Below, in pieces: positions 37,682 through 64,000 of a stretch of DNA of 64,000 nucleotides. Origin of the DNA: Chitinophaga pinensis (GTDB lineage: Bacteria > Bacteroidota > Bacteroidia > Chitinophagales > Chitinophagaceae). Within the stretch, counting starts at the first letter, position 1, and every line of letters starts with the position of its first letter. The notes under the pieces were generated by a model that was not told the origin of the DNA, ran no database searches, and saw nothing but the letters and a program-made list of their open reading frames with translations. Position numbers and translations under genes: made by a program. The DNA is taken from the NCBI GenBank assembly GCA_943373145.1, contig CALSBI010000010.1, forward strand, positions 137,379-201,378, in the 5' to 3' direction.

Positions 37682-38938
37682 CTAATCCCCAGTACACATT
37701 TTCTTTCTATCGCTAAAGGAATTTACATAGTTGATGGCATCATCATCTTGGCGAACGTTGATGCCATACTCAAACAATTTAAGCGCCAGCAAGGGCTGCC
37801 CATCTTTATAACCCATATTGGCCTTGCCAATGATGAAATAGCTATTGCAATTGTTAACAGCCCCACTAAAGTAAAAGGCTTTGCGCCCATCGGCATAATT
37901 ATCTACCCGAACGGGTGCATTTTGACAATACATTTGCTGGTATGTGGCCCGGTTGTTGAACGCCGTGGTAATGGTTTGCTGCAGGTTTTGTTCCTGCATA
38001 GCCAATAACTGTACTGTGCTGCCCTTTTCAAAAAAGCCGGGATGCATGATTTGCAAAAACACGGCCCGCAGTTTATCGGCATTGCCATTGCGGAACAGAT
38101 CGTGCAGGTAATGCGCCATGGCAGCTTCATCGGCAAAAGCGGGCAGGTTGATTTGTGGCAAAGCGGCTTTGGCCTGCTGTGCTTGTTGTTCGGCCATGGT
38201 GTACTGCAGCGTTTGCCTTTGCAGTACCGCCAACTGCTCCGGTGTTTGTTTTACAAATCCGGTTACTTTAATATCTGCCGCTTCCTCGCTGCGCAGGGCC
38301 AGCATATTGTTCCAGGGGCCTTTTATATCATCCCGGTACAGGCGCACATCCCATATGCAATCCACCGTTTCGATACCGCTGTTGAAAATGATATGGTCGA
38401 ATTTTAGTTTCATTTTAAAGCTCACCTGCTTGGGGCTATGCCAAAACCATCGTGGTGTATCGGCCAGCACAGGTGGTTGATGAATTTTGGTAATAACGGT
38501 ATAGTAAAAATTGCCGTAAAACTTTGCCCAGTCCTTGCTGATGAAGTCTTGTATTTCCTTGGCCGTGGGGTTGGGTATGCCGCTGTACTGATTGTCCAAC
38601 ACCCTGAATTTCCAATAACTGTATTTGCCCACACCAGTATATTGATACACCACATCCCCCGTTACCAGCAAGTCAATACCGGGATATTCACTGCCGCGTA
38701 CTACTTCCACGCCCCGCACATATTCCCAATTGCCGATACCGCTGTTCCACTGCCGGGTACCGGTGCCCTTGGTGAGCCGCACTTCTTTTACCCCGCTCCC
38801 ACCCTGCCCTATGGCATCTTTTTTTACTTGGGCATCGTTGGGTTGTGCCAACGCTGTTATGGCATATAACCATCCCCATAACAATATGGCTACTTGCTTC
38901 ATCCTGCTTTTGATTTTGCTACTACTAACTTGTTTCAT
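37682..38938 (-). CDS. secreted hypothetical protein, likely co-transcribed with the CDC-like gene
   Basis: It has a signal peptide (AILLWGWLYAITALAQ) and starts 18 nt after the upstream gene's stop. I recognised no family. An alternative ATG lies at 38902. Confidence 0.7.
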   Translation of the reverse strand: MKQVSSSKIKSRMKQVAILLWGWLYAITALAQPNDAQVKKDAIGQGGSGVKEVRLTKGTGTRQWNSGIGNWEYVRGVEVVRGSEYPGIDLLVTGDVVYQYTGVGKYSYWKFRVLDNQYSGIPNPTAKEIQDFISKDWAKFYGNFYYTVITKIHQPPVLADTPRWFWHSPKQVSFKMKLKFDHIIFNSGIETVDCIWDVRLYRDDIKGPWNNMLALRSEEAADIKVTGFVKQTPEQLAVLQRQTLQYTMAEQQAQQAKAALPQINLPAFADEAAMAHYLHDLFRNGNADKLRAVFLQIMHPGFFEKGSTVQLLAMQEQNLQQTITTAFNNRATYQQMYCQNAPVRVDNYADGRKAFYFSGAVNNCNSYFIIGKANMGYKDGQPLLALKLFEYGINVRQDDDAINYVNSFSDRKKMCTGD

Positions 38939-38956
38939 TGATCAGTCGATTGTTTT

Positions 38957-63900: not shown

Positions 63901-64000
63901 CTGTTGAATGAAAGATTAAAATTGGATGTGGTGGTAGTGCCAACCACATTAATACCCCTAATAGTAGGCGCCGTAGTGGTAACAGCATTGGGGGCTTTTA
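57963..64000 (-). CDS. giant secreted protein, N-terminus outside window (tandem ~620-aa parallel beta-helix modules, Ig-like domains, NIDO-like domain, shared C-terminal module)
   Basis: The frame remains open from the listed GTG at 63947 to base 63996 (translated by hand: KAPNAVTTTAPTIRGIN...), and there is no signal peptide at 63947. Two complete and one partial module each end in D.DG.TR....PDMG.DEF. The C-terminus is WIGAVNTDWNTAGNWACG...LTVRTGASVTVGSGFELKLNGTN. Confidence 0.9.
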   Translation of the reverse strand, partial: KAPNAVTTTAPTIRGINVVGTTTTSNFNLSFNSVFLNASSSGANFGTAALYATVSTTATSGNLTLKNNVLVNQSLPAGTGFSVAYQRSGTALNNYASASNNNLFYAGAPSASNLIFYDGTNSDQTMGAFKARIAPAESASVSENPLFLSTTGSATDFLHIDPATATQIESGGIPVAGITDDYDGNTRNVTSPDMGADEFTGIAADLTGPSIAYALLTNTSCIANAVLAPVTVSDASGVNIAPGTRPRLYYKKSTNANTFNDNTNGTDGWKYVEATGAGGSPFSFTTDYTLLFGGGGATTGDVIQYFVVAQDNAGTPNVGINNGTFTANPSSVALTAAAFPIGGTINSYTFVPAGLSGTVTVGAAGTYPTITGTGGLFEAINTNGLSGSLTANILDASITEPGTVALNNINNNGCAAGPYPVLIKPDAGVSSVLTGAVGAGAIIKLNGADYVTIDGSNNGSNTRNLTIQNTTATTSGNAVIWLASPATGNGAGNNTIKNCIVEGNSSTTSFTGIHIGGSTTIGLATAGNEANSNNTISNNLLRKTQYGTTMFGFSATSPDLNNVISNNNYGTATAGEGFTLLAINADRQQNFIVSGNEVQNVVNATNTSSTPFGGIRLLDFKNGQCFNNNIHDLAYTGTSTPKIYGIAITSSTFTTAGNPSNALVYNNAVSRITSTGTSSVWNLTGILASAGYGDRFYNNSVHLTGQLSNTTAGLAAAFANGDDNITTTCTNIDVRNNIFSVTGSNGAVGGNYWAYYSRVTTLAGSTLNYNDLYCNATNVTNNIGRFNSLNYTTLATWQTATAQEANSINIAPVFVSNTDLHLVPASNFLLDNFGTPIAAVTTDIDGTTRSATAPDMGVDEFTAPTVTDAAATAIVVPALCVGSNPVSVTVRNLGTVTITSLLIDWSVTPGGAQPQFNPGAISLAPGASQTFVVGNFTFAAGTIYSITATTSSPNGGADGVPGNDAFTQNNLQTGITGTFTVGVGGNFPTLTAAVAEYNTRALCGPVVFNLTDANYSTSETFPITINANASASATNTLTIKPATGISPLITGAVGAGSIIKLNGADYVTIEGSNNNTNSRNLTIQNTTATTTGNAVVWIAAPATGNGGTFNTVKNCVIEGNSATTSFLGMYVGGNTTISLSAIGAERNNNNTITNNLFRKTQHGLALFGYVAASPDQNNVVSNNNFGTATAGEGFALTGIYADRQENMVVSGNEIRNITNATTASNVFGIRLLDFKNGQAYNNKIHSMSYTGTSSPKYYGIALTSSSYTTVGNPSNALIYNNAISNITSTGTSAVWNVTGILAGAGYGDRFYNNTVHLAGQLANSASGLAAAFANGDGNITAIGTNIDVRNNIFSITGSSGTAGGNFWAYYTPATTLAGTTLNYNNLYCNATNVTNNIGRFNAVNNTTLAAWQAATAQEANSINVLPTFISNIDLHLDNGNNVALDNLGTALAAVTTDIDGDTRSATTPDMGVDEFASIPCSEAIGGLGVGSAFGCVSYTGTISVSGYSTGVGTTYQWVSGPSATGPWTAIGGATTPSAYTISPAITTTTYYRLAVACPTSASVDSSSVIAITIVAKPTVPVTPAGPLTICAPGTQTFSAAGTNAATPAFAWLRNNVAISGATSATYATGTAGSYRVKITDGVTGCFDTSIIVLLNVNPQPANITATATPDTVCIGGNVNLTSSASVGYSMNPAGTEAFIDIDANPTVTSITVLSDDSEHNIGMPQFTFNGVTYTTARVGMNGAVALGSTSGDITTANAALPTTANTAGNILLMPWWDDLDIATTGPATNIKLDTVGTKFIIQYSNTAHNDFLTGTVKFQIQLDTASGLIHYVYDDVLFGNATQDLGVTATVGLQWTSTAAVQYSFNTASLTAGQCISFAPATVGYAWSGPNGFTSTLQNPTLTNVSSLDSGIYQVVFSNLATGCTDTAFVTVHVRPTTTSEWIGAVNTDWNTAGNWACGNVPTATSTVIIRSSVPNYPVINQNVEIKTLTVRTGASVTVGSGFELKLNGTN

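Follow-up and report, generated by a model that had tools for sequence, protein, structure and literature searches.

The 64,000-nucleotide stretch of DNA analyzed here (the window) comes from an apparent Chitinophagaceae genome. Its last 26 kb carries genes for very large secreted proteins, a sensor kinase and a response regulator, a predicted pore-forming toxin, and a secreted protein that resembles the formylglycine-generating enzyme (FGE or SUMF1). A first-pass annotation of the sequence had interpreted these genes as one integrated surface and toxin system under two-component control. An open reading frame (ORF) listing, translations, and domain calls from Pfam and NCBIfam place ten genes there in the order given by that annotation (Table 1). 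Its description of a region on one strand holds for nine of these genes, all on the minus strand. The tenth, encoding a 503-residue protein, is on the plus strand, where the annotation had itself put it.

We compared the window with loci and contigs from other genomes, which are designated here by L-numbers. The sample comprised 79 loci with an FGE-like gene and approximately 15 further loci. On balance, the region is probably a mosaic and not one machine. Its parts are a core formed by the kinase, the regulator, and a cholesterol-dependent cytolysin-like (CDCL) toxin, an autonomous cassette of the FGE-like gene and the gene for a repeat protein (called YNGG), and unrelated neighbor proteins.

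Table 1. Positions of genes and sequence features in the 26-kb region
Feature	Position	Strand	Basis or remark
418-residue secreted protein ("partner")	37682-38938	-	starts 18 nt past the CDCL stop
CDCL pore-former (thiol-activated-cytolysin family), 615 residues, signal peptidase I (SPI) signal peptide, basic N-terminal KLDDLKNPFD segment	38957-40804	-	
Box copy 2, upstream of CDCL	40854-41040	-	
YNGG protein, secreted, 25-residue repeats ([FY]xGGxxNGF), G8-like module at end	41090-41902	-	
Module copy in YNGG protein	41093-41317	-	module hidden Markov model (HMM)
FGE-like secreted protein, 533 residues: signal peptide, Ig-like N-terminal domain, divergent FGE/SUMF1 fold	41899-43500	-	
Box copy 1, upstream of FGE-like gene	43536-43693	-	AGTAGCAATTCAAAAAACC, then CGTTGAC heptamer array, then AAAATCCCCCAAACGGGTGATAA
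Response regulator, REC and GerE/LuxR helix-turn-helix	43924-44541	-	ATGA overlap with kinase gene; Pfam, NCBIfam
Sensor histidine kinase: signal/transmembrane segment, ~430-residue TPR region, transmembrane helix, HisKA_2, HATPase	44538-46715	-	Pfam, NCBIfam
11-bp GC-rich palindromic hairpin between giant2 and kinase gene	46756-46783		
giant2, 2463 residues, secreted: LTD, GBD_T9SS_assoc, internal weak G8-like copy, C-terminal module	46810-54201	-	Pfam
Module copy in giant2	46813-47037	-	module HMM
DUF6261 protein, 231 residues, no signal peptide	54608-55303	-	Pfam E=8.7e-28
4.4 tandem copies of ~41-nt unit, each with ~12-16-nt palindrome (CTACTTAGTAG-like)	55419-55599		divergent DUF6261/S74-T9SS interval
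503-residue tail-fiber-like protein, Peptidase_S74 chaperone domain and type IX secretion system (T9SS) type A C-terminal domain (CTD)	56095-57606	+	Pfam, NCBIfam
GC-rich hairpin, T/A runs on both sides, between convergent giant1 and S74 genes	57806-57845		read from sequence
giant1, giant secreted repeat protein, G8-like module at end	57963 to beyond 64000	-	ORF open to window edge (63998)
Module copy in giant1	57966-58190	-	domain i-Evalue 1.6e-39 against module HMM

The kinase-regulator-CDCL triad

Both halves of a two-component system are readily recognized by their Pfam domains, with HisKA_2 (2.3e-28) and HATPase in the kinase and Response_reg (7e-25) and GerE (5e-18) in the regulator. Judging by its placement between the N-terminal signal/transmembrane segment and the transmembrane helix, the TPR region of the kinase is probably periplasmic and is taken to sense an envelope or external cue. 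In L082, L085, L088, L092, L094, and L096, orthologs of this kinase precede CDCL or FGE-like genes.

The toxin gene begins at the ATG at position 40804, which precedes the signal peptide. A longer ORF that starts with GTG and extends to position 40990 merely translates heptamer repeats, and is an example of the spurious N-terminal ORF extensions that such repeats create in the window. Among PDB sequences, the predicted protein matches 8g32, a CDCL from Elizabethkingia (E=7.7e-4), and 6nal (E=0.03). It also contains the YGR and GG motifs that are conserved in CDCLs (Evans 2020, PMC7527733), with its VTYGRRLYV and YTQGGQP segments aligning with the corresponding residues of 8g32. The window protein itself falls below Pfam reporting for PF01289, a domain that is present in most of its 67 homologs (36 to 84% identity), among them proteins at 36-64% identity. 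These homologs are named thiol-activated cytolysin and include proteins from Niastella and Taibaiella metagenome-assembled genomes (MAGs). The 8g32 match, the motif alignment, and the PF01289 matches of the homologs bear out the first-pass assignment of this protein as a CDC-like pore-former.

Characterized CDCLs of Bacteroidota are antibacterial pore-formers that are often two-component and accompanied by an operon-encoded inhibitor lipoprotein called BcdI, and the single-gene arrangement is the commonest (821 genomes) (PMC11169675). The window CDCL resembles these proteins (Evans et al. 2020, PMC7527733; Abrahamsen et al. 2024, PMC11169675; 8g32) in its thiol-cytolysin family membership, its YGR and GG motifs, its secretion by a Bacteroidota genome, and its single-gene arrangement. 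Unlike the two-component CDCLs, it is a lone gene and not part of a long and short pair, and its SPI signal peptide lacks the lipobox Cys of a signal peptidase II (SpII) lipoprotein signal. It also differs from known CDCLs in its N-terminal basic extension, encoded in relatives as a small protein of its own, and in always following a TPR kinase and a LuxR regulator. Where the BcdI operons encode the inhibitor lipoprotein, the window carries the gene for the 418-residue secreted protein, which is unrelated to CDCL and whose predicted fold we read as NTF2-like.

At L082:15525-15833 and L085:12213-12602, small secreted basic proteins encoded on their own are homologs of the basic segment at the CDCL N terminus (..SGVKLDDLKNPFDT..KRRK..). 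At L088:8451-9656, a homolog of this segment forms the tail of a 401-residue protein. In all three loci, the homolog precedes the gene for a 95-residue lipoprotein and a gene of the 418-residue family. This arrangement suggests either a gene fusion or a shared pro-region.

A TPR kinase and a LuxR regulator lie directly upstream of the CDCL gene, on the same strand, in six of six contexts (window, L092, L094, L096, L097, and L098) across which CDCL identity ranges from 46 to 84%. The kinase in L097 and L098 is of the HisKA_3 subtype. At the level of gene order, this adjacency favors the earlier idea of a toxin controlled by a two-component system. The kinase would sense an envelope or extracellular cue and then phosphorylate the regulator, which in turn would switch on the downstream secreted genes. 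The CDCL would be exported by the Sec pathway through its SPI signal and, by analogy with the characterized Bacteroidota proteins, would act as an antibacterial pore-former.

Where genes intervene in or follow the kinase-regulator-CDCL unit, they are tail-fiber-like. Such genes, with PTL_trimer, YadA_head, and Peptidase_S74 domains, occur beside the unit at L092:14137-21143, L096:4116-7917, and L097:11743-17631, as well as at 56095-57606 in the window. Their products may be targeting partners of the toxin, or the genes may share its regulation.

The FGE-like/YNGG cassette and its flanking box

The FGE-like gene and the CDCL gene share an upstream box that had been put forward as a link between the units of the region. 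The sequence match is real, and it connects the FGE-like and CDCL units only. Two exact blocks of 19-23 nt, AGTAGCAATTCAAAAAACC and AAAATCCCCCAARCGGGTGATAA, flank a CGTTGAC array upstream of these two genes and no others. Shuffled sequence matched the first block once at most and the second block not at all. The two box regions align over approximately 190 nt and are located 40-60 nt upstream of two operon starts.

Comparison with related contigs bears on the origin of the box. The closest long contig, L092, is collinear with the window (80-84% nucleotide identity) through giant2, the kinase, and the regulator, and again through the CDCL and its partner gene. Nothing in L092 corresponds to the window segment from 43936 to 40699, which includes the FGE-like gene, the YNGG gene, and one copy of the box; the regulator there is followed directly by CDCL. 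The same order of kinase, regulator, CDCL, and partner is found in L094 (72-76% nucleotide identity), whose single regulator-CDCL spacer matches both window copies of the box. Thus, the collinearity of L092 and L094 and the single spacer of L094 identify the box as the 5' region of CDCL, duplicated around an indel of ~3.2 kb that holds the FGE-like and YNGG genes. In this lineage, the cassette lies between the regulator and CDCL, flanked by the duplicated CDCL 5' region, and the duplication may have placed the FGE-like and YNGG genes under the same control as CDCL.

We regard with some doubt the possibility that the box is also a regulator-binding operator that defines a regulon. The placement of the two ~190-nt copies close to both operon starts and the homologous spacer upstream of CDCL in L094 would fit such a role, but there are only two full copies and these flank the indel exactly. 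Furthermore, no copy precedes the giant, DUF6261, or S74 genes. A search of 90 loci detected the box in L001 alone, a locus from the same organism (100% identity), with no copy in the other 89; a metagenome scan yielded one unrelated high-GC contig, which we take as a chance match. Most of the box is also heptamer array, of the kind that fills most intergenic regions of the window. A local duplication accounts for these observations better than an operator or the system link that had been proposed.

Neither CDCL nor a homolog of the 418-residue protein occurs in any of the 79 FGE-like loci, and CDCL is thus not supported as a neighbor of FGE-like genes. A kinase-regulator pair is present in one of the 79 (L003, Cyclobacteriaceae). 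In the close relatives of the FGE-like protein (L081, L082-84, and L085-87; 58-84% identity), the cassette lies behind the same kinase-regulator family, and this indicates that the locus is a hotspot of variable secreted-protein genes downstream of the regulator. In L081, whose FGE-like protein is the closest relative (84% identity), two small genes are present between the regulator and the FGE-like gene (L081:335-914). One encodes a 101-residue lipoprotein that is homologous to the 95-residue gene product of L082 and L085, and the other encodes a 77-residue basic protein. Unlike L081, the window has only heptamer arrays in this interval, which is further evidence of rapid reshuffling.

The 533-residue FGE-like protein has an FGE-sulfatase domain (Pfam PF03781, E=9.2e-16). 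In profile searches, it matches human and bacterial FGEs in the PDB (E~4e-9) over the N-terminal half of the FGE domain only, with the C-terminal half left unaligned. Its AlphaFold model (pTM 0.85) has an Ig-like domain at the N terminus and, after it, a divergent FGE fold. When the whole model was searched with Foldseek, the lone match at E<1e-3 was the sulfoxide synthase OvsA (E=4e-4), and the other matches were to Ig-like adhesins and pilins, on the N-terminal domain. Across 24 diverse members of the family, no Cys or His is invariant, nor is any Cys near-invariant, and the catalytic Cu-binding Cys pair of FGE is therefore lacking from these members. No Pfam or NCBIfam model names the family; in NCBIfam, the 24 members give weak, scattered matches to SenA, EgtB, and GldK (the last in one member), and the window protein matches neither the GldJ nor the GldK model. 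The family is nonetheless large, with at least 2,824 full-length proteins and at least 584 matches among GTDB species representatives from many phyla. Its taxa include Bacteroidota, Ignavibacteria, Calditrichia, Verrucomicrobiota, Omnitrophota, Lentisphaeria, and Bdellovibrionota.

Among proteins of this fold, GldJ and GldK/PorK offer the closest parallel in that they have an FGE/SUMF1 fold without FGE chemistry, are secreted to the envelope, and are associated with T9SS cargo. The FGE-like protein differs from them in several respects. Its mature N terminus begins with ANN, and there is no Cys at the cleavage site of the signal peptide; hence it is not a lipoprotein. It also has an additional Ig-like domain at its N terminus. 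Moreover, its gene is located beside one specific cargo gene and not with gldLMN, and the family extends to Verrucomicrobiota, Omnitrophota, Lentisphaeria, and Calditrichia. The resemblance to SUMF1 and to the EgtB/OvoA-type sulfoxide synthases consists of the FGE-sulfatase domain, the N-terminal-half profile matches, and the OvsA structural match. The FGE-like protein departs from these enzymes in having neither the conserved Cys pair nor the His triad, in its unaligned C-terminal half, and in the absence of sulfatase or ergothioneine genes near its gene.

The translational coupling noted earlier between the FGE-like and YNGG genes is confirmed by the overlap of the likely YNGG start codon (ATG at 41899) with the FGE-like stop (TGATG, one base shared), and a tightly coupled pair of this kind is conserved across genomes. 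The recurring neighbor is a close gene on the same strand whose product bears [FYW]xGGxxDG[FYW] motifs that start right after the signal peptide. An adjacent ORF on the same strand with the motif is present in 40 of the 79 FGE-like loci, compared to 3 of 758 background ORFs. Three or more motifs occur in 42 of 130 adjacent ORFs and in none of 827 background ORFs. The C termini of these repeat proteins vary: among 44 FGE-like neighbors, 23 end in a T9SS type A CTD, one in CHU_C, and eight in the module that also ends the window YNGG protein, and three have the module internally. The eight are from MAGs labeled Chitinophagaceae, Ferruginibacter, and Chitinophagales and from unlabeled metagenome contigs. 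This spread of C termini indicates that the partnership of the FGE-like protein is with the repeat tag and not with the module. The conserved neighbor of the FGE-like protein, recognized by GGxxDG repeats in its N-terminal part and usually terminated by a T9SS type A CTD, thus gives no support to the proposal that the FGE-like protein handles module-bearing proteins. We found no description of the pair in the searchable literature, and no Pfam or NCBIfam model describes the GGxxDG repeat.

Without the catalytic Cys pair, the FGE-like protein would most likely bind the repeat tag on its neighbor or assist in its maturation, as a cargo-specific partner with no catalytic role. The logic of such a role would be comparable to that of PorP/SprF-type accessories, and the fold to that of GldJ, GldK, and PorK. 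Genes for PorP/SprF-type accessories adjoin those for type B CTD cargo (PMC9143113). The likeness to PorP/SprF (PMC9143113), a dedicated accessory gene beside the cargo gene that it serves, is an analogy only, since the FGE-like fold is unrelated to the outer-membrane beta-barrel of those proteins and the recognized element would be an N-terminal repeat tag and not a CTD. We tentatively suggest that the FGE-like protein and its repeat protein might form an undescribed and very widespread cargo-accessory pair, consisting of a tag and its receptor or modifier, for secreted or surface proteins of Bacteroidota and other phyla. As part of the same tentative proposal, the terminal G8-like module would replace the T9SS CTD in a Chitinophagaceae sub-clade, perhaps as an alternative sorting or anchoring element that is shared with giant adhesin-like proteins.

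FGE-family enzymes recognize short linear motifs such as CxPxR. By this precedent, the FGE-like protein might instead be an enzyme that modifies the [FYW]xGGxxDG[FYW] repeats of its neighbor, in an enzyme-substrate pair like FGE acting on its short linear motif, or with repeat proteins that resemble multi-core precursors of ribosomally synthesized and post-translationally modified peptides. The strict coupling of the two genes, the short conserved motif in one to more than ten copies, and OvsA as the best structural match are all compatible with this idea. The pair is also present in phyla outside Bacteroidota, where a T9SS would not be expected. We nevertheless consider an enzymatic role unlikely, given that no Cys or His is invariant in the family, that alignment to genuine FGEs is confined to the N-terminal half of the domain, that the motif has no Cys or Ser target, and that no literature support was found.

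The 418-residue protein, the module, and other features of the window

The model of the 418-residue protein (pLDDT 92) has three tandem alpha+beta domains. Foldseek relates these, with low TM-scores, to iota-carbonic anhydrase, the LDB1/LDB2 self-association domain, and ketosteroid isomerase, and we read the predicted domains as tandem NTF2-like folds. No specific function follows from this modeled resemblance. The family includes 139 proteins, and the named ones are from Chitinophagaceae, Ferruginibacter, or Spirosomataceae. The gene follows CDCL with a gap of 0-18 nt in the window, L092, and L094. Five loci have homologs without CDCL; in L082, L085, and L088 they follow the same kinase-regulator pair, and in L089 and L090 they are alone, whereas CDCL occurs without such a homolog in L096, L097, and L098. 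Therefore, the 418-residue protein is not an obligate partner of CDCL.

BcdI, as an operon-encoded inhibitor of a CDCL, provides a precedent for a different role, in which the 418-residue protein would confer immunity to the adjacent toxin and the copies in genomes lacking CDCL would be orphan immunity genes (PMC11169675). The tight spacing behind CDCL and the secretion of the protein are in keeping with this, but the two genes occur apart in both directions, and some of the five contexts without CDCL have a conserved MgtC/Paa neighborhood. In addition, the signal peptide is of the SPI and not the lipoprotein type, and nothing in the fold resemblance points to a specific function. We judge an immunity function to be improbable.

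Over their final 75 residues, giant1, giant2, and the YNGG protein are 42-57% identical, and so the similarity that had been taken to connect these three proteins stands. The module is neither new nor specifically C-terminal, as had been claimed. A profile built from the three copies detects 12,312 cluster representatives at E<=1e-3. The best 150 of these proteins contain 687 copies (~4.6 per protein); 51 of the 150 have a copy just after the signal peptide, and 12 have one at the extreme C terminus. Because it occurs in multiple copies and at any position, the module is a common building block of giant surface proteins and does not serve as a locus-specific tag.

Other module-bearing proteins (E=1e-5 to 9e-11 for G8) and the internal copy in giant2 (E=0.0019 for G8) give weak Pfam matches to the start of G8 and Amnionless. 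The likeness to the N-terminal region of G8/Amnionless (PF10162, PF14828) resides in the W..W....NW..G..P....V.IP start of the module, and only the first ~45-70 positions of the G8 profile (full domain ~120 residues) match it. Compared to these domains, the module consists of the first ~70 residues only, and the three window copies are at the extreme C terminus, ending in LNG[TQ]. It is probably the start of a beta-helix. Neither CHU_C nor T9SS_Cterm_ChiA nor the T9SS type A CTD (Por_Secre_tail) matches giant1, giant2, or the YNGG protein of the window.

Three observations could be held to favor a single system of ten genes under two-component control, with the secreted FGE-like protein as a handling or anchoring factor for the module-bearing giant1, giant2, and YNGG proteins. 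These are the three terminal modules, the presence in Chitinophagaceae of the module at the end of 8 of 44 FGE-adjacent repeat proteins, where others have a T9SS CTD, and the recurrence of giant2 upstream of the kinase-regulator pair in L092. This already disfavored reading is highly unlikely given the breadth of the module and its mostly multi-copy, N-terminal or internal occurrence, the GGxxDG repeats and usual CTD of FGE-like neighbors, the lack of CDCL in all 79 FGE-like loci, and the absence of the giants beside the kinase-regulator pair in L094, L082, L085, L088, and L096-L098.

Synteny of giant2 with the kinase-regulator pair is limited to L092, and neither giant is a conserved neighbor beyond ~80% nucleotide identity. 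The giants, the DUF6261 protein, and the S74/T9SS protein are thus neighbors only, and not parts of the unit to which the giants had been assigned. For giant1, no Pfam match was found beyond a sub-threshold Ig_2 (18 bits, cut-off 27) and no PDB sequence match was found, and its beta-helix label is tentative. The LTD half of the "LTD/NIDO-like" label given to giant2 is correct, and its NIDO-like half has no supporting Pfam or PDB sequence match. The 503-residue protein is a tail-fiber-like T9SS cargo, as described before. An internal tandem duplication of ~1.85 kb (~616 residues; 70-79% nucleotide identity) is present in giant1, where 59574-59989 corresponds to 61416-61831 and 60337-60884 to 62185-62732. 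The hairpin at 57806-57845 looks like a bidirectional terminator, and the one at 46756-46783 probably marks a transcription-unit boundary. The ~41-nt repeats between the DUF6261 and S74 genes could be a regulator-binding array.

Arrays of tandem heptanucleotides fill most intergenic regions of the window, including housekeeping ones (e.g., near pgi), and are a genome-wide feature. They are located at 14592-14623, 32247-32463, 33457-33638, 35363-35610, 37470-37565, 40882-40940, 43575-43925, 54373-54600, and 57629-57962. The heptamer varies by array (TTGATAC, CGTTGAC, CCATTAT, CCGATGA, GGGAATT, TATCCAG, AACTTTC, and others). The arrays resemble the STRR repeats of cyanobacteria and were unexpected in this genome. 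We rejected a heptamer array as a regulator site because arrays of differing heptamers occupy housekeeping intervals as well.

Several other features lie elsewhere in the window. A 1372-residue ORF (123-4241), which from its sequence alone we take to encode an alpha-2-macroglobulin-like protein, is directly followed at 4380-4726 by nested tandem repeats (126 nt x2, 42 nt x5, and 18 nt x5.6). Three tandem paralogous secreted proteins of 271, 285, and 278 residues, with Lys/Pro-rich C-terminal tails (KKPTKKPAKK...), are encoded at 5355-7871. Proteins of 2714 residues (14710-22854) and 741 residues (23579-25804) share a near-identical N-terminal domain and the same FVW.D.N.NG.QD repeats. The repeats look like the SdrD_B/Cna-B type and the C termini like T9SS type A CTDs; if this is right, classical T9SS CTDs are in use in this genome in addition to the terminal G8-like module. 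Scanning the window for Rfam families and tRNAs gave no match. Scans for sigma-70 promoters and terminators gave no enrichment (17 versus 16.7 and 16 versus 14.4, respectively), with a promoter model that is unsuited to Bacteroidota. We also rejected a mobile genomic island, as the GC profile of the 37-64 kb region overlaps that of the rest of the window and no integrase or transposase domain was present in the ten scanned genes.

A probable mosaic of known and new parts

Synteny and domain statistics speak against a single integrated system, and the units are probably inherited separately. Several observations weigh against parts of the mosaic reading that we prefer. The more distant loci L082 and L085 have the kinase, regulator, FGE-like, and YNGG genes without CDCL. 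The FGE-like/YNGG genes could therefore be ancestral and have been lost in L092 and L094, and the indel may be an insertion or a deletion. In all close relatives (L081-L087) and in L003, these genes also follow a kinase-regulator pair of the same family, which hints at a functional tie that we have treated as secondary. Control of CDCL by the regulator is deduced from adjacency, in six contexts of which two have a different kinase subtype (HisKA_3). Finally, the whole-chain Foldseek match of the FGE-like model is weak and does not discriminate GldK from an enzyme, and the protein may be catalytic through residues other than Cys and His.

The individual kinds found here, namely a CDCL toxin, a two-component system, T9SS cargo, giant adhesin-like proteins, and a G8-like domain, are already known, and the claim that their combination is one new system finds no support. 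The mosaic is new in two of its parts, the invariable linkage of kinase, regulator, and CDCL and the widespread, uncurated pair of FGE-like and GGxxDG-repeat genes. There is also a lesson for method, in that generic domains and local duplications can yield shared modules and boxes within a locus, and comparative controls are needed.

CDCLs are a recently recognized antibacterial family, and the invariably adjacent kinase and regulator in Chitinophagaceae offer a handle on the timing of toxin deployment. The FGE-like/GGxxDG-repeat pair is found in hundreds of species, mostly with T9SS cargo, and may represent a new class of cargo-specific accessories built on the GldJ/GldK/PorK fold.

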